NCBI GenBank assembly: GCA_000004695.1
Contig: CM000153.2
Location: 2,656,001 to 2,720,000 of the forward strand
DNA length: 64,000 bases
Direction: 5' to 3'
DNA from: Dictyostelium discoideum
Taxonomy: Eukaryota
Shown here: positions 42,477 to 50,791 of the stretch, piece after piece
Position numbering within the stretch: the first letter of the stretch is position 1
Layout of the letters: each line of letters opens with the position of its first letter
Notes under the pieces: model-generated
What the model saw: the letters and a program-made list of their open reading frames with translations, nothing else
The model's database searches: none
Told to the model about the DNA's origin: nothing
Translations under genes and position numbers: made by a program

Positions 42477-43183
42477 ATGGTATTACCATTATTAAAAGTT
42501 GGGTCATTATTAATTAAAAGTTTGGCTAAACCATTGTCAAAACAAATTAAAATAAGAGCATCAAAATCACCAATATTCCATGACAGAGTTGTTAGAGGTG
42601 CAAGACTATGGCATAAATTAGATTTGAAATTAACCAAATTCAATGGCGATACAACTAGAAAACCAGTAGATTTAAATGTTAACGCTGCAATTGATTTAGG
42701 TACTGAAATAGTTTCTGAAGCATTTTTATTAAGTGTTGCAATTGGTCTTTTATTATATGAAACCTCAAGAAGTTCTGAAAAAGATAAAAAGAAAGAAGGT
42801 AAGTTATATAAAGATATAAATATTTATATATCTTTCTTTTTTTGGAAATAAACTATAAAATAAACTAATAATAATAATAAAAAAAATAAAAAAAAAATAA
42901 AACAGAGGCACTACAAAATAGATTTAAAAATTTAGAAGAAAAACTTGAAGTTCAACAAGAAACTATTAATAATTTAACAAATGTTATTGAAGCAATACAA
43001 TCATCGAATCCAAATTTAAATATATATATTGACCCAAATCAATCAACAAAATCATCAATTGCTGAATACATAAATACTCATAATATTAAATTAAATTCTT
43101 TAAAAAACGCGCAAACAGAAAATGATTATAAATCAATTTCCAGTGAAGGAATTCCAAATAAAAGAATATCCAATGTAAACTAA
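42477..43183 (+). CDS. OPA3 (optic atrophy 3)-like mitochondrial protein; exons 42477-42798, 42906-43183
   Basis: MVLPLLKVGSLLIKSLAKPLSKQIKIRASKSPIFHDRVVRGARLWHKLDLKLTKFNG...AIDLGTEIVSEAFLLSVAIGLLLYE parallels human OPA3 [63 protein letters not shown]...[24 protein letters not shown]. The junction is GAA G|gtaagt...aaaacag|AGGCACTAC, followed by a coiled-coil C-terminus. Confidence 0.8.
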
Positions 43184-43344: not shown

Positions 43345-43985
43345 TTAAGTATAAATTGAACCTTTACATCTTGTTTCATTATGATAATTAAAACATTTTA
43401 TACTACAATATCTACTTGAACATTGTTTACAGGTATATGCACCAATATAGCCACATATTGAACAAAAGTGTCTAGGTGGAAATATTGAGGGTTTTGATTG
43501 AACGCTAATATATGTTGGTACATGATCTGGAAAAGTTTCTAAATACTATATGTGTATAATTATAATGATTTTGGAAATTTTAATATATGAGGGATATTTT
43601 AAAATTAAAAATAATAATAATAAAAAAAAAAAAAAAAATATTATTCACTTACAGATTTCTCTAAAACATCATTAAAATTTAAATTCATTGATTTCTTTTC
43701 ATTTTTTTTCTTTTCTCTTGCAATGAATAATCTTTTTTTATTTACAGGTGTTGTATAAACTATTTCATTTTCATCATCGTTATAATCATTGTCTTCTTCA
43801 TCTCCTCTACTACCTATTGGTTGTTGTTCATTGTCATCATCCAATGATTCCAATCTTGCACTTATAACTTTTTCTTTTAAATTCCTTCTATCCTCTTCAC
43901 TAGTTACTCTATATCTCTTTGAAATTTGACTCTTTCTTTTACTTGATTGTGGTGTTTCTATATTTACAATTATTGAATCTGACAT
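43345..43985 (-). CDS. ZNHIT1/Vps71-type HIT zinc-finger protein (SWR1/SRCAP-complex subunit); exons 43985-43653, 43545-43345
   Basis: Exon 2 FCSICGYIGAYTCKQCSSRYCSIKCFNYHNETRCKGSIYT* parallels human ZNHIT1 FCAVCGFPSPYTCVSCGARYCTVRCLGTHQETRCLKWTV*. Exon 1 is basic and acidic (MSDSIIVNIETPQSSKRKSQISKRYRVTSEEDRRNLKEK...). The junction is AAA TCT|gtaagt...atatag|TATTTAGAA. Confidence 0.8.
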
Positions 43986-44345: not shown

Positions 44346-44404
44346 AAATTTGATCTTTTTTTTTTTTTTTTTTTTACATATTAACTCTAAACACCAATAA
44401 AAAA

Positions 44405-45644
44405 GATGTTAAGCAAATCAAATAATATCAGAAAGTAAGGAAAAAATTAATTTTTATTAAAATTTTATTATATTTATCTAACAAAATATATATTTTCAAA
44501 TAAATAATAAAAAAATAAAAATATTTAGAGTCTTTGCCAGAGGATTCACAACTTACGTTCAACCAGGTAAATTCAATGCTGAAACCAACGAAACCATTGG
44601 CAATAGAATTAGCAATGTTTGTGAAAAATTCTCATATAATGATGCAATCTCTATTCCAGATCATGAAAACTACACTTTAACTTATAATGATGTTTTAGTA
44701 AGTAATACGAAAAAAAAAAAAAACAAAAAAAAAAAACAAAAAACAAAAAAAACCCAAACTAACAAATTCAACATTATTAAAAAAAAAAAAAAAAAATCAA
44801 ATCAAATCATAATTAAAAATCAAATATAAATAGCAAAATACAAGAGGTTTAGCAGGTGGTTTTATTGAGCACAGCATTAAAGATGATCAAACAATTGTTT
44901 CAAATTCATTTGGTGTTGATAGTACAATGACACATATTGCAGCATCATTTGCAGGTTTAAATTATGTATCAATTCCACCAACTTCAACATTCTCAGAAAT
45001 TGGAACTCATTTAAATAATCAAAAAGCATCATCATTCGTTATGGCTGATTCAAACCAAAGAGTTATGGTTGATGAAGCATTAGAATTCTTCCCAAATTTA
45101 AAAACTAGTATGTAGTTAAATAATTAATAATACAGTATGACCCAATATTTTTAAAATTGAACTAGAGGATTTAAGAATTTTATCAATATAAAACAACAAT
45201 GATAATAATATCAAGTCATTATATATCTATATGATGATTGATATATATATATTTATATTTATTAGTACATATGTACTAACCCAATTATATTTATAAATAT
45301 AGTTTATAACGATGAATATCACAGAGATAACAGATTCCCAGAATTAAAACATATTTTTTCAACAGGTGCATCACAACAACCAGGTATTAGTTTATTAAGA
45401 GATATTATTTTAGATACCAAAACTTCACCAAATAAAAACGTTACAAACACTCAAATCTCAGCAACCTACCCAGTCGCTGATGGAAAATACGTTTCATTCA
45501 CCCAAAAATCACTTTTAAATACAGCTGATGCTTTAGCTGAATTCTTTAATATCAAAACAGCCCAAAGATTTTCATTTGCCGCTCCATTATTTGAAGGTAA
45601 CGCCACTGCTTTCAGTAAGTATTAAATAATAATAATAAATAATA

Positions 45645-45730
<86 letters not shown>

Positions 45731-46014
45731 AAAAAAAAGATTATTAATTGAGTTTTTTTTTTTGTTTTTTCTTATTTATAATGAAAAGACCTAGCATGTC
45801 TTTCAAAAGGTGCTTTGATCGCACTCATCAGTCAAATTAATCCAGCAAACATTTTAAATTCAATCATTAAAGATAAATGTGATAACCTTTTCATTTCATC
45901 ATCAGTTTTAAATACATTAGTTTCAAGCCCAGAATTTGCAAGAGTTGAAAACTTTGAATTAAAGAAATTGATTGTTGGTATGTATATATAACTATATTTA
46001 TGGTTTTCTTTAAT

Positions 46015-46057
<43 letters not shown>

Positions 46058-46424
46058 CAATTATGGTACCACATATTAATAGTTTTGAACAATTTTAATT
46101 TTTTTTGAAAAAAAAAAAAAAGTTGGAGAAATTGATAATTCAGTTGTTAAACAATTTGAATCAAAATGTAAAGGTGTTGAATCATCTATTATTCCATTCG
46201 TTCATGCTGGTCAAATTTCAGGTGTAGTTTTCAATTCATCAGGTGTTGGTAAACTTTTACCAAATGTTGAAGCTAAAATCGTCGATAGCAATGGTAAAGA
46301 GTTAGATTTCGATAATAAAGGTTCATTAATGACTAAAGGTTTCCATGTTGGTTCCAATCCAGCTCATTGGTTAAAAACTAACATCAAAGCTTCAATGTCA
46401 AAAGATGGTACCATTAAATTATAA
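44405..46424 (+). CDS. ANL-superfamily (acyl-CoA synthetase / 4-coumarate-CoA-ligase-like) N-terminal-domain protein with a degenerate P-loop; six exons 44405-44433, 44529-44697, 44834-45107, 45303-45614, 45789-45977, 46123-46424
   Basis: The spliced product is ~345 aa: MLSKSNNIRK|VFARGFTTYVQPGKF...YTLTYNDVL|QNTRGLAGGFIEHSIKDDQTIVSNSFGVDSTMTHIAASFAGLNYVSIPPTSTFSEIGTHLNNQKASSFVMADS...|IYNDEYHRD...ISATYPVADGKYVSFTQKSLLNTADAL...|NLACLSKGALIALI...|VGEIDNSVVKQF...GQISGVVFNSSGVGKLLPNVEAKIVDSNGKELDFDNKGSLMTKGFHVGSNPAHWLKTNIKASMSKDGTIKL*. It is collinear with adenylate-forming-enzyme motifs. The SSGTTGxPKG P-loop position reads YPVADGKYV. The ORF stops where the GWLHTGD / C-terminal subdomain would begin. 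All six junctions are canonical and phase-consistent. Confidence 0.6.
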
Positions 46425-46431
46425 ATCTTAA

Positions 46432-46479
<48 letters not shown>

Positions 46480-46977
46480 TTTTTAAAAAAAAACCAATAT
46501 ACATCTCTAAACAAAATTAAAAAAAAAAAAAAAGATAAAAAATAAAAAATGTTATAAATAAATTAAATCTTTTTTTTTTTTTTATTTAAATAATTTTTAT
46601 TAATCCCAAATAAAGGTTAAAATAAAAATAGAAAAAGATTTGGATATGCAATTACAGTTTTTTTTGGATATTTTAATAAAATTTGAAATTTTTAAATGAG
46701 TTGGAAATTGGTGTTTTTGGAGGAGGTTTATGGTTTTTGATAAGGTTTTGAGAATTAATTGAAAATGGAGGTGGGCTTTGAGATCTAATACAATTTGGTA
46801 TTGAGTTATAATTGTTTTTGAATATTGGGTATTGTTTTTTATAAAATTGGGTTTACCAAACCTTTTATTGTTGTTGTTGTTGTTGTTGTTGTTGGATTTT
46901 ATTTAATTATTTCTCACATTCCATTCTCTCTAATTTTCTTTTTAATTCTTCTATTTCATTTTTTTTTATTTTCACTT

Positions 46978-47894
46978 TTAATTGTTTCTTCTTTCTATCT
47001 TTAATATTTGTTTTTCTATATGTCTCACCCAATCAAGTTTTTCTCTTTTTGCTTTTTCAAGTTGTCTTTCTCTTTCTTCATTTTGTTCAATTGGCAGTGT
47101 TTCTATTTTCTTTCTTTCAATTTCTTGTTTTTGATTTTCATGTTTCAATTTTTCTCTTTCAATCATCTCTTTTTCAATTATTTTATTTTCTGATTCAATT
47201 ACATAGGTTTGTTCAGTTCTTTTTTCATTTGCTATTTTTTCCAGTTTTTCTTTTTCTCTTTCACTTTTATCTTTTCCATTTTGTTTAATTTGATATAGCT
47301 TTCTATTATTTTGGATTTCAATTTGTTTAATTTGATTTAAAAGTTTATCATTTTCTAATTTTTTAATTTCAATTTCATTTTCAAATTTTTTAAATGGTAA
47401 AAGTTCATCTTTTTCCATTTTTTGTTTTAAATATTCAATTTGCTTTTTTTCAATTTCCAATTGATTTTTGAGGATTTGGTTTGTTAATTTTTCATTTTCA
47501 CAATCTTGTATTAATTTATTTATTTTATCTAAATAATGGTGTTTTATTTCTTTAATTTCTTTTTTATTTCTTATCTTTTCATTTTTCAATTGACTTTGAA
47601 TTTCTATTTCTTTTGAGTCATGATAATTTTCATTATCACTTACATAGAAACTAAATCTTGATTGATTTTTTGCTGACGGATGAAATAAGGACCCATCTGA
47701 TCTTTTTAAATTAATATTACACCCTCCGTTGTAAGAAACAAATTCAAATTTTTCTCTAGTTTTATTATCATAAACTATTTGTGGTCTAATAAATTATTAT
47801 AAATTAATAAAAATATATTTACTGTTAAATTTTTTTTTTTTTTTTCTTACATTTCATTATTTCTTGATGAACTATCAAAATTTATTTTTCTCAT
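46978..47894 (-). CDS. K/E-rich coiled-coil protein (~283 aa); exons 47894-47851, 47785-46978
   Basis: Exon 1 is ATGAGAAAAATAAATTTTGATAGTTCATCAAGAAATAATGAAAT|gtaaga, which is MRKINFDSSSRNNE(I). The acceptor tttattag|ACCACAAATAG continues PQIVYDNKTREKFEFVSYNGGCNINLKRSDGSLFHPSAKNQSRFSFYVSDNENYHDSKEIEIQSQLKNEKIRNKKEIKEI...(heptad-like EK-rich)...ERRNN*. The listed ORF at 46978..47589 starts at a TTG and is internal to this exon. Confidence 0.5.
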
Positions 47895-48244: not shown

Positions 48245-50791
48245 TTAACTATTTGGTTTATAAAGTTTAAAATAATTTAATAAAAAAACATTATTTAAAG
48301 TGACAGATGAACTGTTTAAAAGGAAAGATTGATAATTTGTAATTTTTGGTAATGTTTTAAAGAATGGATTTTTGAAAAATTCTAAAACCAAATCAATATG
48401 ACCCATTTGCACAGAGGTGAAAAAAATGGTATTAGAAGTAACATCACGAGAATCATTTCTTTCTCTAAATAAATTATAAATCATTGTTTGGTAATTTGAT
48501 TGTAAATGTTTAAAAACATTTAGTTGACCATAAATACTAATAAATTTTAAAAGGTAAAAAGGTAAATGTCGACTCATTTTACCTTCATCAAATGATTTTA
48601 TAATTAAATCAGCAAACCACAAATTACCATATAAACCAATTTCTAAACTTGTGATTAAATAAAAATCATTGAAATCTTTTGATGAGCCTAAAAATTGGGG
48701 TAATGAAATATGATCAATTCCATTGGTTTGTTTTAATCTAAGATAATTGAAAAGAATATTATACTTTGGATTCATTATATTACATCTTCCACTTTCAATA
48801 TCAAAAGGTCTGTGATTGAAAATGTATGAGAAAATTCCAACAGAATCCCATTGATTATAATTATTATATAGATAGTTTACATTTGAAGGAGTACGCTCAA
48901 GTATATATTTAAAATCATTTAAATTAGTGAATTGATAACCATGAGTACTTGGAGTAAAATGCCAAATATTCATTGAATCATAATCGAAATCATCGATATT
49001 ATCATAGATGAATTTAATAACATCCATTGAAATTTCTGAATAATTTCCTTTATGAACCAAATCTTTAATACTAACATAGTAGATATTTGGTTGTAATAAT
49101 TTCAAATGTTTCAATAGTTCAGATTTACCATCTTGAATTAATGTATTAACCAATGAAAAATTTACATTATTACCTCTTGTACAAATTATTGAATAGATTG
49201 TTTTATTCTTAATAATTAAATCAATCATTTCAGTTGAATTTATAGATCTATAAATTCTACCAATGGAAAGTGGTTCATTTGTAAATTTAAATTCAATATT
49301 TGAATCTATTAGCAAAAGTTTAACCAATTCTAAATCATTTACAAATATTAAATTTAATAAAATTTGATTAATTGAATTTTCTATTAAACTTGTTGATTTT
49401 TGTAATTTTTTAACATCACTTATTAAATCTTTAATAAATTGAATTTGTTTTGATCTTTCATTTTTACAATAATAAAAAATTGGAAGTTTACCAAACATTT
49501 TTAAACCTTCATTTTTGATTTTATTAAAATCATAAACACCAAATAAACATGGATGAAATTTTGAACTTAAATCTAATTCTTCACCATAATAAGATTCATA
49601 TTTAATTTTATAAAATAAAAAACTATCATTAAAATATGATGATTTAAATTCTACAAATGGTAAAATAAATTGATAAAATCTTTTAACCAAAGAATTAATA
49701 TTATTATCATTTGATGAATTGAATTCAAGTACCAATGTATTTAATTGTTCTTTTGTAAATGATTTTGTTAATATATTAATTTCATCAAGTGAATTAAATA
49801 AATTAATTTTATCATTAAATAGTTCATTTATATCTTTTTCATATTTAATTATTTTTAATTTATTATCACTTTTAATTTTATCAGTTGAATGAAATTTATT
49901 ATATTTAAAAGATTTTTTAGAGATTGAATCTGTATATGGTTTTAAAAATTCTTTTAAATGAATAATTGATTTTACAGATTCAATTAATACTGATAAAGTT
50001 TGATCATAAACTAATATATCAAATAAATGATATGGTTTACATTGAAATTGAAATTTTTGTTTATAAATTGCTTCACTTAATGGTACATTTAAATTACATT
50101 GATTTAAAAGAAAATTTAATCTTTCATTTAACAAAAAACCATTTTTATTTAAAATATTGGTGTTATTATTATTTGATGAAAATAAAACCATACTCCAAAT
50201 TTTATATAACGATGCTGGCTTTTCAAGTGCTCCCGATCTCTTTAAAACTTGGAAAATAAATAAAGCACAATCATATGACCCAATTTCAATGGATCTATAA
50301 AGTGAATCCAATGAAAAACAATGATTATGACATGTAACTAATGCCTCCAAACATTGGACATTATCATATTCAATTGAAATATATTCACATTGAATTATAT
50401 TACCATTATCTATGAAATATTTTGAATAGTTTTTAAATAGGTGATAATAAAAGTTTGAAGAATTCCATTGAGCTTTAGTTGAAATTTGTTTATTAAAAAT
50501 TGAAAATTTATTCACTACAATCATTCGACCATTATCATATTGTCTTCTTAATTTATTTCTAAAAATTGTATCACTTGAGTTTGAAAAATCCAAATATTCT
50601 CCTCTTTGAATTTTATCTTTTAATAATTCATAATATTCAAATTGCACACACCATTCACATGATATAATATCTTCATATTTGTAAAATCCTAAAAATATAT
50701 CTCGATTTCTTAGAAATTTAAAAATATTTTGTTTTAAAAATATATTTCTAAAAATCTTAAAAAATAATTTATCATTTATATTATTTTCCAT
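48245..50791 (-). CDS. Lineage-specific hypothetical protein (848 aa), paralogue of the 3670-7221 gene
   Basis: Continuous ORF. The conserved N-terminal module is shared with the 1183-aa protein (see that entry). It lacks the long poly-N tracts of its paralogue. Confidence 0.7.
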   Translation of the reverse strand: MENNINDKLFFKIFRNIFLKQNIFKFLRNRDIFLGFYKYEDIISCEWCVQFEYYELLKDKIQRGEYLDFSNSSDTIFRNKLRRQYDNGRMIVVNKFSIFNKQISTKAQWNSSNFYYHLFKNYSKYFIDNGNIIQCEYISIEYDNVQCLEALVTCHNHCFSLDSLYRSIEIGSYDCALFIFQVLKRSGALEKPASLYKIWSMVLFSSNNNNTNILNKNGFLLNERLNFLLNQCNLNVPLSEAIYKQKFQFQCKPYHLFDILVYDQTLSVLIESVKSIIHLKEFLKPYTDSISKKSFKYNKFHSTDKIKSDNKLKIIKYEKDINELFNDKINLFNSLDEINILTKSFTKEQLNTLVLEFNSSNDNNINSLVKRFYQFILPFVEFKSSYFNDSFLFYKIKYESYYGEELDLSSKFHPCLFGVYDFNKIKNEGLKMFGKLPIFYYCKNERSKQIQFIKDLISDVKKLQKSTSLIENSINQILLNLIFVNDLELVKLLLIDSNIEFKFTNEPLSIGRIYRSINSTEMIDLIIKNKTIYSIICTRGNNVNFSLVNTLIQDGKSELLKHLKLLQPNIYYVSIKDLVHKGNYSEISMDVIKFIYDNIDDFDYDSMNIWHFTPSTHGYQFTNLNDFKYILERTPSNVNYLYNNYNQWDSVGIFSYIFNHRPFDIESGRCNIMNPKYNILFNYLRLKQTNGIDHISLPQFLGSSKDFNDFYLITSLEIGLYGNLWFADLIIKSFDEGKMSRHLPFYLLKFISIYGQLNVFKHLQSNYQTMIYNLFRERNDSRDVTSNTIFFTSVQMGHIDLVLEFFKNPFFKTLPKITNYQSFLLNSSSVTLNNVFLLNYFKLYKPNS

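Follow-up and report, generated by a model that had tools for sequence, protein, structure and literature searches.

All solved members of the family of catalytically dead ANL proteins discussed here, that is, mL69, NDUTT2 and NDUEG1, are subunits built into larger complexes. mL69 belongs to a set of proteins docking onto the large subunit of the mature mitoribosome, in the region of the central protuberance (PMC7703582). In the structures from T. brucei and Leishmania (PDB 6hiv/6hix chain BC, 7aih/7ane chain Ai), it consists of an ANL N-terminal domain only. NDUTT2 is an ANL-like accessory subunit of Tetrahymena complex I (PDB 7tgh chain T2), and NDUEG1 is a very divergent subunit of Euglena complex I (8iuf chain E1), with 483 aa and again only the N-terminal domain. 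NDUEG1 has been equated with NDUTT2 and with the T. brucei complex I subunit NDUTB17 (there written NDTB17), and lies at the peripheral-arm tip as part of the 'FAS domain', in whose subunits enzymatic activity was not detected; this subunit, common to Euglena and Tetrahymena complex I, was described as 'conserved only in alveolates' (PMC10884005). An additional twist comes from Diplonema, where the NDUTB17 homologue is listed as mL69 and termed 'bifunctional' (PMC12699882). AcMitoCarta, which deals with Acanthamoeba (PMC13632651), lists 13 'unique' proteins that co-migrate with complex I, e.g. ACANB03328 of the N-like module, and 19 that co-migrate with the mitoribosome; its main text makes no mention of an acyl-CoA synthetase or AMP-binding-type subunit.

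A gene for a protein of this kind lies on the + strand, at 44406-46424, of the window analysed here, which is a 64-kb stretch of Dictyostelium discoideum DNA (Table 1). Once rebuilt from the window, the gene has six exons, its introns are all GT..AG, and its 424-aa product is a 100% letter match to the annotated D. discoideum AX4 protein (DDB_G0284963 / XP_639958.1 / Q54NV9). DDB_G0284963 is a real gene that was annotated before this analysis, and neither its gene id nor its UniProt id occurs in the searchable literature. A preliminary description made from the letters had correctly read six phase-consistent exons and a C-terminus ending in SMSKDGTIKL, with the stop at 46422-24, while its start (44405) and its product length (~345 aa) need correcting to an ATG at 44406 and to 424 aa. 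Since ANL HMMs independently pick out five of the six exons, the likeness to ANL proteins is not due to chance. An alternative exon-5 acceptor at 45795 was rejected because the database protein uses 45789.

Table 1. Features of the DDB_G0284963 locus, with positions in the window and residues in the 424-aa product
Feature	Position	Strand	Remarks
Exon 1	44406-44434	+	Start codon, MLSKSNNIR-K, phase-2 donor; intron position and phase kept in five dictyostelid species
Presequence-like N-terminus, residues 1-25	44406-44574 (spans intron 1)	+	R-3-like motif, R14-G-F followed by T
Exon 2	44529-44697	+	ANL HMM match; intron position/phase conserved
Exon 3	44834-45107	+	A1/A2-equivalent region; ANL HMM match; intron position/phase conserved
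Exon 4	45303-45614	+	Holds degenerate P-loop and A4-equivalent; ANL HMM match; intron position/phase conserved
Motif A3 / P-loop position, residues 209-227 ISATYPVADGKYVSFTQKS	45455-45511	+	Luciferase SSGSTGLPKG deleted/degenerate here (alignment to firefly luciferase and intact ligases)
A4-equivalent, residues 249-261 FAAPLFEGNATAF	45575-45613	+	Glu in place of luciferase His245 (alignment)
Exon 5	45789-45977	+	Acceptor 45788/45789 yields database-identical protein; intron position/phase conserved
Exon 6	46123-46424	+	Ends in TAA stop codon, 46422-46424; stop is the homologous codon in five of five species
A5-equivalent, residues 347-361 IIPFVHAGQISGVVF	46188-46232	+	Thr/Glu of YGxTE gone; aligned PFVH-AGQ
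A7-equivalent and last beta-strand, residues 406-424 HWLKTNIKASMSKDGTIKL	46365-46421	+	Invariant Asp of GWxxTGD replaced by Ile (alignment)
Intergenic region to convergent minus-strand neighbour	46425-46977		No ANL C-domain exon; no plausible + strand exon

The product has the fold of the N-terminal AMP-binding domain (PF00501) without the means for catalysis. At the P-loop position it reads ISATYPVADGKYVSF, with a deletion (aligned as YPVADGK--YVSF), and the P-loop expression [ST][ST]G[ST][ST]GxPK has zero matches in the protein, which answers the earlier concern that an intact P-loop might lie elsewhere in it. The key residues of A4, A5 and A7 are replaced as well. The preliminary description had the homology stop before the GWLHTGD motif, whereas it actually runs through the equivalent of that motif (HWLKTNI, residues 406-412) and ends, at about luciferase position 435, immediately before the position of the hinge (luciferase D436/R437). 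Since DDB_G0284963 is devoid of every residue needed for ATP binding and acyl-adenylate formation, ligase action is impossible.

An exhaustive profile HMM search brought up 420-500-aa proteins, falling into ~40 clusters at 50% identity, which are also devoid of the P-loop and share the same end column. Most of these clusters have basic, presequence-like N-termini without acidic residues. The end columns of the aligned members, among them mL69, lie 0-3 residues from that of DDB_G0284963, except for a partial Synstelium model (P0013) that stops short. The handful of sequences that could be assigned to organisms come from Balamuthia, Acrasis, Synstelium and one bacterial MAG (Paenalcaligenes, P0055 cluster). 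Apart from a few intact ligases, word-indexed protein searches recovered dictyostelid orthologues only. On profile scores, there is strong evidence that DDB_G0284963 groups with these truncated dead proteins and not with intact ligases, since its score is 269 bits with a family HMM from which dictyostelids were left out, compared to 146 bits with an HMM made from 41 intact ligases. Neighbour-joining (NJ) trees point the same way, the family, the dictyostelids and mL69 being monophyletic in 98/100 and 196/200 bootstraps, although long-branch attraction is possible because the trees are distance-based and family members evolve fast. A position of dictyostelids as sister to all other members was found in 0/200 NJ bootstraps. 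That the protein belongs to a widespread family including mL69, NDUTT2, NDUEG1 and NDUTB17 had escaped the preliminary description.

The link to the solved structures comes from profiles. When the PDB was searched with the family profile, mL69 came out on top with 227 bits (152 bits for the best true enzyme), NDUTT2 was found with an E-value of 2e-35, and NDUEG1 (6e-34) ranked below many true enzymes, while being colinear with the profile to within 11 residues of its chain end. A profile of the N-terminal half, from which dictyostelids and kinetoplastids were left out, gave 120 bits for mL69 and 116 bits for NDUTT2, compared to ~37-56 bits per A-domain for true enzymes (two-domain LgrA chains total 84); Euglena NDUEG1, with 41 bits, did no better than true enzymes. 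Conversely, the family HMM gives mL69 214-217 bits, and the ligase HMM gives it 116-124 bits. With a dictyostelid-only HMM, mL69 and NDUTT2 rank above luciferase; in the PDB, the dictyostelid-only profile places mL69 first but weakly (26 bits vs 24 for NRPS A-domains), which indicates that the link rests on intermediate sequences. A single-sequence search of the PDB with DDB_G0284963 yielded no match, mL69 being reached by profiles only, and those with P0051 and P0063 returned true enzymes and neither NDUTT2 nor NDUEG1. Side by side, mL69 and DDB_G0284963 share the loss of the P-loop and of the A7 Asp and the same end column before the hinge, with an identity of ~14%; mL69 differs by insertions (e.g. 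after the PEL motif) and by a longer N-terminus. The deposited NDUTT2 chain is shorter, with 333 aa.

Taken together, these comparisons suggest that DDB_G0284963 is probably a pseudoenzyme of the mL69/NDUTT2 family with a structural role in mitochondria. Of an ACSF2/PRK12583-like acyl-CoA synthetase it has kept the N-terminal domain only, and it falls in a eukaryotic clade with mL69 and, on profile scores, NDUTT2, which NDUEG1 and NDUTB17 join by their published equivalence. Its N-terminal presequence may then direct import into the mitochondrial matrix, where the protein could be fixed to a large assembly as a rigid accessory subunit with a structural role. The N-terminus resembles a presequence, as the preliminary description had noticed: residues 1-27 contain five K/R and zero D/E (the first acidic residue is E28), an R-3-like motif is present, and AlphaFold pLDDT is <50 over residues 1-16. 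The precedent set by the family points to a scaffold role, and among its possible hosts we tentatively favour complex I as the more likely one, since cryo-EM places the family there in two distant supergroups (Tetrahymena and Euglena). The host complex differs between lineages, which precludes a confident transfer to Dictyostelium.

The same dead fold could instead be a subunit of the large subunit of the mitoribosome, at the central protuberance as kinetoplastid mL69 is, which we regard as unlikely. This mitoribosomal location is documented in Euglenozoa only, compared to the two supergroups for complex I. Moreover, mL69 clusters with Discoba-like sequences (Acrasis P0033, P0062 and P0121) in 83% of bootstraps, and not with dictyostelids. 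The isoelectric point was considered as a discriminator between ribosome and complex I, and was rejected because mL69 is itself acidic.

Less likely still is a soluble pseudoenzyme, matrix or cytosolic, that acts alone, e.g. as a binder or sensor of fatty acids or other acyl ligands via a remnant acyl pocket, the truncation being possibly independent of the mL69/NDUTT2 lineage; this corresponds to the 'repurposed substrate-binding module' of the preliminary description. The acyl-substrate pocket of ANL enzymes is located in the N-domain that is retained here, and bacteria show that hinge truncations arise independently. Two bacterial proteins of 434-442 aa, P0055 (from a Paenalcaligenes-type MAG) and P0025 (from a metagenome), stop at the hinge and have neither the P-loop nor the A7 Asp. 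Unlike DDB_G0284963, they have no presequence, as judged from their acidic N-termini, and lie in bacterial gene neighbourhoods. Since P0025 is nested among intact ligases, its truncation is independent, and a shared end point is therefore no proof of common descent; for P0055, 64% of NJ bootstraps give a position as sister to the eukaryotic clade. Against a soluble ligand binder, no conserved pocket residues were found across the truncated family, in which the (near-)invariant positions are structural Gly/Pro/Ala only (G391, and A73, G75, P153, P170 and G397). In addition, placement inside the family is strong on both HMM scores and NJ trees, and the solved members are all complex-bound.

It is barely conceivable that DDB_G0284963 is still an enzyme, with a C-domain that is supplied in trans or encoded by downstream exons that escaped detection, or with a non-canonical chemistry. 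Nothing more than the retained fold speaks for this, and the replacement of A4 His, A5 Thr/Glu and A7 Asp on top of the P-loop deletion speaks against it. The C-terminal domain (PF13193) has no match in the protein, and an ANL C-domain HMM run against the six frames of the window identified no C-domain-like ORF fragment (best E 1.5). Further exons in 46425-46980, the presence of which had been raised earlier, were not found either, since no plausible + strand exon is present up to the convergent neighbour. On the basis of the six-frame HMM search and the downstream exon search, additional 3' exons and a C-domain at another place in the window were both rejected. Orthologues, the search for which had also been suggested, were found in four other dictyostelids, all equally without the C-domain. 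The five species have intron positions and phases and the stop codon in common, upstream OPA3 / zf-HIT synteny is kept among orthologues, and in the other four species the convergent neighbour gene begins ~200-270 bp past the stop. The sister sequence P0015, an intronless transcript-sized contig, likewise has the stop followed by ~118 nt without further ORF. Finally, that this is a decaying pseudogene or an annotation artefact has a negligible chance of being true because, although dN/dS among dictyostelids (0.23-0.46) is fairly high, at ~0.4 for larger distances, which indicates moderate constraint only, the closest pair has 0.23, the six-exon reading frame is intact with conserved intron phases, and the Polysphondylium orthologue is 46% identical over its full length with the same stop; the gene is under purifying selection. 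The interpretation of the preliminary description, a pseudo-enzyme rather than an active adenylating enzyme, is thus supported by motif loss, the missing C-domain and purifying selection.

With these findings, the mL69/NDUTT2 dead-ligase family extends into Amoebozoa and gains another member in Acrasis, a heterolobosean, and a Dictyostelium gene hitherto 'hypothetical / AMP-dependent synthetase domain-containing' now has a likely role that can be named, and thereby a testable identity. Without reassignment, metabolic reconstructions would wrongly count DDB_G0284963 among the enzymes that activate fatty acids. The findings also bear on (i) how early the 'lineage-specific' accessory subunits of complex I and the mitoribosome arose and (ii) whether a single pseudoenzyme is shared, or has moved, between the two complexes. 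We would give a little less than an even chance to a bolder proposal, namely that the dead ANL protein is an ancient subunit, possibly as old as LECA, that was kept in Amoebozoa (dictyostelids, Balamuthia) and Heterolobosea (Acrasis), DDB_G0284963 being an unrecognised accessory subunit of complex I or the mitoribosome. If so, the dead protein would not be the speciality of alveolates and euglenozoans that the literature has made of it, and the dead form might even go back to prokaryotes, with P0055 as a marker of that origin. In that case, Dictyostelium would offer a first genetically tractable system for studying why complex I or the mitoribosome retains a dead ligase, and whether one and the same protein serves the two. 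Owing to its knock-outs, tagging and well-defined mitochondrial-disease phenotypes, a subunit role is directly testable there.

As for the ancestral enzyme, it was likely a PRK12583/ACSF2-like fatty acid CoA ligase, when compared with which DDB_G0284963 misses the catalytic motifs and the whole C-domain. PRK12583 (NF009233) is the best-scoring enzyme model for DDB_G0284963, for the Balamuthia protein (P0016) and for the four full-length ligase hits that were scanned. The score of DDB_G0284963, 73.2 bits, is far from the curated cut-off of 832 and covers profile positions 5-411 of 558 only. A PEL...RFPxLKxI...G...PG region seen in the alignments also appears to be common to DDB_G0284963 and ACSF2.

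Reading positions 44380-46500 of this AT-rich window in three frames, and joining the open stretches at GT..AG sites, yields six exons that total 1275 nt, remain in phase throughout and encode a 424-aa product (see table). This agrees with the preliminary description as to the number and phase of the exons and the position of the stop, but not as to the length of the product, which had been put at ~345 aa, or the start, which had been placed at 44405, one base before the ATG. The product matches D. discoideum AX4 DDB_G0284963 (XP_639958.1; UniProt Q54NV9) at every residue from end to end, a protein which bears the database title 'AMP-dependent synthetase/ligase domain-containing protein', so this is a real gene, previously annotated with the same model. 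The sole Pfam match of the protein is PF00501 (E 4.5e-15), with the best stretch aligning residues 219-400 to profile positions 178-379 of 384, and ANL HMMs detect five of the six exons, each independently.

Exons of DDB_G0284963, neighbouring genes and repeats
Feature	Position	Strand	Remarks
OPA3	42477-42851	+	upstream neighbour
zf-HIT	43641-43985	-	upstream neighbour, opposite strand
Exon 1	44406-44434	+	GT..AG joining, ATG at 44406
Exon 2	44529-44697	+	GT..AG joining
Exon 3	44834-45107	+	GT..AG joining
Exon 4	45303-45614	+	GT..AG joining
(AAT)n microsatellite	45645-45728		long; occupies most of intron 4
Exon 5	45789-45977	+	GT..AG joining
Exon 6	46123-46424	+	TAA stop at 46422-46424
Second (AAT)n microsatellite	46432-46479		long; begins 8 bases past the stop codon
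Downstream neighbour 1	46978-47589	-	K/E-rich, coiled-coil-like ORF, 203 aa, stop at 46978
Downstream neighbour 2	48245-50791	-	848-aa ORF

Alignment with firefly luciferase and intact ligases bears out the dead P-loop that had been read from the sequence, since motif A3 (198-SSGSTGLPKG-207 in luciferase) is replaced by YPVADGK--YV, with a deletion. Three more contacts to ATP, ribose and adenylate are lost: (i) in A4, Glu replaces luciferase His245, (ii) in A5, PFVH-AGQ stands for YGLTE and (iii) in A7, HWLKTNI stands for GWLHSGD, with Ile for the invariant Asp. Because this last strand is present, the homology does not stop just before the GWLHTGD equivalent, as had been thought; the protein ends at about luciferase residue 435, directly before the hinge (D436/R437). 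Pfam finds no C-terminal domain in the 424 residues, and an ANL C-terminal-domain HMM built from 38 intact ligases and luciferase, applied with maximum sensitivity to every six-frame fragment of the 64-kb window, gives a best E of 1.5. Nor is there a plausible + strand ORF between the stop and the end of the next gene at 46978, and the orthologue stop is followed after ~200-270 bp by the start of a convergent minus-strand gene in D. dimigraforme, D. firmibasis, D. purpureum and Polysphondylium violaceum. The preliminary reading of an ORF without C-terminal subdomain or further exons, and hence of an N-domain-only pseudoenzyme, is thus supported by both the missing domain and the lost motifs. 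The protein is unable to bind ATP or adenylate canonically, and lacks the mobile C-domain that both half-reactions need.

Orthologues in other dictyostelids, which had been proposed as a check, are found in these same four species (91, 76, 56 and 46% identity to the D. discoideum protein; 403-428 aa), and all end in ...KDG(T/S)I(K/Q)L at the same column. Exon chains re-derived from each genomic locus show that the three other Dictyostelium species keep all five introns of D. discoideum in position and phase and P. violaceum four of the five, with TAA at the homologous codon in all five dictyostelids. The upstream order OPA3 (+), zf-HIT (-), dead ANL gene is likewise common to all five (loci L006, L007, L002 and L001 in D. 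dimigraforme, D. firmibasis, D. purpureum and P. violaceum, respectively); zf-HIT was undetected by Pfam in the single window ORF tested. OPA3 is a mitochondrial protein family. Nei-Gojobori dN/dS is 0.23 between D. discoideum and D. dimigraforme and reaches 0.42-0.46 in pairs further apart. This is purifying selection, moderate in strength and less strict than enzymes usually show. The gene might have been taken for a pseudogene, a reading rejected on these values (0.23-0.46).

Two gene models deserve a comment. In the EukProt model P0013 from Synstelium polycarpum, which lacks the last ~40 residues, residues 1-33 match the C-terminal part of OPA3 at 58% identity (E 1e-11); most likely, gene prediction has fused neighbouring genes in this model, in which case OPA3 would adjoin the dead-ligase gene in Synstelium too. 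One D. citrinum assembly has the orthologue as two adjacent models (P0010, 291 aa, and P0011, 159 aa) that together span the gene, which looks like an annotation split and no real disruption, since another D. citrinum assembly has an intact 424-aa protein.

Truncated dead ANL proteins are not confined to dictyostelids. An exhaustive HMMER search with the dictyostelid profile against 1.84 billion representative proteins gave 744 matches, the top five being three truncated-type proteins and two dictyostelid orthologues. Among the best 150, ~40 are 370-500-aa proteins in which the match reaches the extreme C-terminus of query and target, the P-loop is absent and the ending is ...GW(L/V)xT(G/S)xxAxxxxxGxxx(L/V)x*; the remainder are typical ligases of 530-600 aa that carry TSGTTGxPK and a C-domain. 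Across the family, the positions that are invariant or nearly so are all structural Gly, Pro or Ala, and most of the truncated proteins have a basic, presequence-like N-terminus without acidic residues. The named members belong to Balamuthia mandrillaris (Amoebozoa), Acrasis kona (Heterolobosea) and the dictyostelid S. polycarpum, and most others come from transcript-sized contigs, such as the intronless 1570-nt contig of sister sequence P0015, which holds the ORF, its stop and ~118 nt beyond.

DDB_G0284963 scores 269 bits, end to end over residues 24-424, against an HMM built on 31 truncated proteins from outside the dictyostelids and 146 bits against one of the 41 nearest intact ligases. The kinetoplastid mitoribosomal protein mL69 behaves similarly (214-217 bits against a family HMM made without Discoba-like and dictyostelid members, versus 116-124 for ligases), as does a 163-aa fragment of Tetrahymena complex I subunit NDUTT2 (118 versus 92). 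With a dictyostelid-only HMM, mL69 (37 bits) and the NDUTT2 fragment (34 bits) both exceed luciferase (28 bits). In neighbour-joining trees (69 sequences, 420 columns, Kimura distances), dictyostelids, truncated family and mL69 form one clade without any intact ligase in 98/100 and 196/200 bootstraps. Dictyostelids nest within it, as sister to sequences P0014 and P0015 in 84% and to the whole family in 0/200, and mL69 clusters with Acrasis plus two related sequences in 83%. Since the trees are distance-based and all family branches are long, long-branch attraction may be behind this clade.

Searches of all PDB sequences link the family to solved structures. A 26-member family profile places T. 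brucei mL69 first (6hiv/6hix chain BC; E 3e-66, 227 bits), with an alignment reaching to within 6 residues of its C-terminus, and gives 226 bits for Leishmania mL69 (7aih/7ane) and 152 for the best true enzyme. It also matches NDUTT2 (7tgh_T2, deposited as 'Acyl-CoA synthetase'; E 2e-35) and Euglena complex I subunit NDUEG1 (8iuf_E1; E 6e-34), the latter in one colinear stretch, residues 12-472 of 483. An N-terminal-half profile of 19 members, leaving out dictyostelids and kinetoplastids, gives mL69 120 and NDUTT2 116 bits, versus ~37-56 per A-domain for true enzymes (two-domain LgrA chains total 84); NDUEG1 is divergent (41 bits). The Balamuthia protein P0016 alone retrieves mL69 on top, aligned over its full length (E 9e-16); the dictyostelid-only profile also ranks mL69 first, but weakly (E 3e-5, 26 bits versus 24 for NRPS A-domains).

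Cryo-EM of other protists has already made this family known. The step that appears new is the assignment to it of DDB_G0284963 and its amoebozoan relatives, the searchable literature confining it to alveolates and euglenozoans. This assignment holds moderate interest for the evolution of mitochondria and is a useful fix to functional annotation. Euglena NDUEG1, equated with Tetrahymena NDUTT2 and T. brucei NDTB17, is one of the five subunits of a 'FAS domain' located where the peripheral arm of complex I has its tip; none of the subunits of this domain has a detected enzymatic activity, and NDUEG1 was considered conserved outside Euglena only in alveolates (PMC10884005). A diatom study instead makes NDUTT2 homologous to NDUEG2 (PMC12854811); the profile matches, in which 7tgh_T2 and 8iuf_E1 both look ANL-like, support the NDUEG1 equivalence. 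The N-terminal 16-25 residues of DDB_G0284963 would be a matrix-targeting presequence and the folded N-domain a rigid scaffold attached to a large machine that faces the matrix. Complex I is the leading, if tentative, candidate for this host, because cryo-EM puts the family there in two distant supergroups. The central protuberance of the mitoribosome, where kinetoplastid mL69 takes the place of mt-LAF4, a placeholder assembly factor of the immature large subunit (PMC7703582), comes second and seems unlikely, and a free soluble role is more doubtful still. The Diplonema NDUTB17/NDUEG1 homologue has been given as 'bifunctional', and also as mL69, in a study of the diplonemid mitoproteome (PMC12699882). 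In complexome data from Acanthamoeba, 13 unique proteins co-migrate with complex I and 19 with the mitoribosome, of which the main text names four and none, respectively, and contains nothing identifying an ANL-type protein (PMC13632651).

As for ancestry, the best enzyme model for DDB_G0284963 is NF009233/PRK12583 'fatty acid CoA ligase family' (73 bits versus a cut-off of 832; profile positions 5-411 of 558). Since it is also the best model for the Balamuthia protein (188 bits) and the four intact ligases scanned (577-721 bits), the dead family most likely derives from an acyl-CoA synthetase of this kind; the model may correspond to ACSF2-type enzymes. Bacteria have 434-442-aa N-domain-only proteins as well, P0055 (L003 6001-7329; L004 1017-2345), whose cluster includes a Paenalcaligenes MAG protein, and P0025 (L005 6001-7305), which lack the P-loop and the A7 Asp and end at the hinge column of the eukaryotic family. 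P0055 is flanked by ArgJ, MarR and thiamine genes, and P0025 by MreC, PBP2, RodA and ACP phosphodiesterase. P0055 branches as the sister of the eukaryotic clade in 64% of NJ bootstraps and P0025 is nested among intact enzymes, so at least one of the dead truncated ligases of bacteria arose independently. Hinge truncation can recur, which is a further caveat on the placement of DDB_G0284963.

Downstream of the gene, Pfam has no match in either neighbouring ORF (203 and 848 aa), and the neighbour varies by species, D. purpureum having HECT there and P. violaceum a 3637-aa protein. An AAT run similar to the second microsatellite directly follows the stop in D. dimigraforme. Between the convergent genes, 46600-46900 shows an unusually strong + strand excess of G over C (GC skew +0.68, GC 25%), with GGAGG/GGTGGG motifs and, after them, a (GTT)n run at ~46870-46895, and may be a 3' UTR or terminal exon of the minus-strand neighbour.
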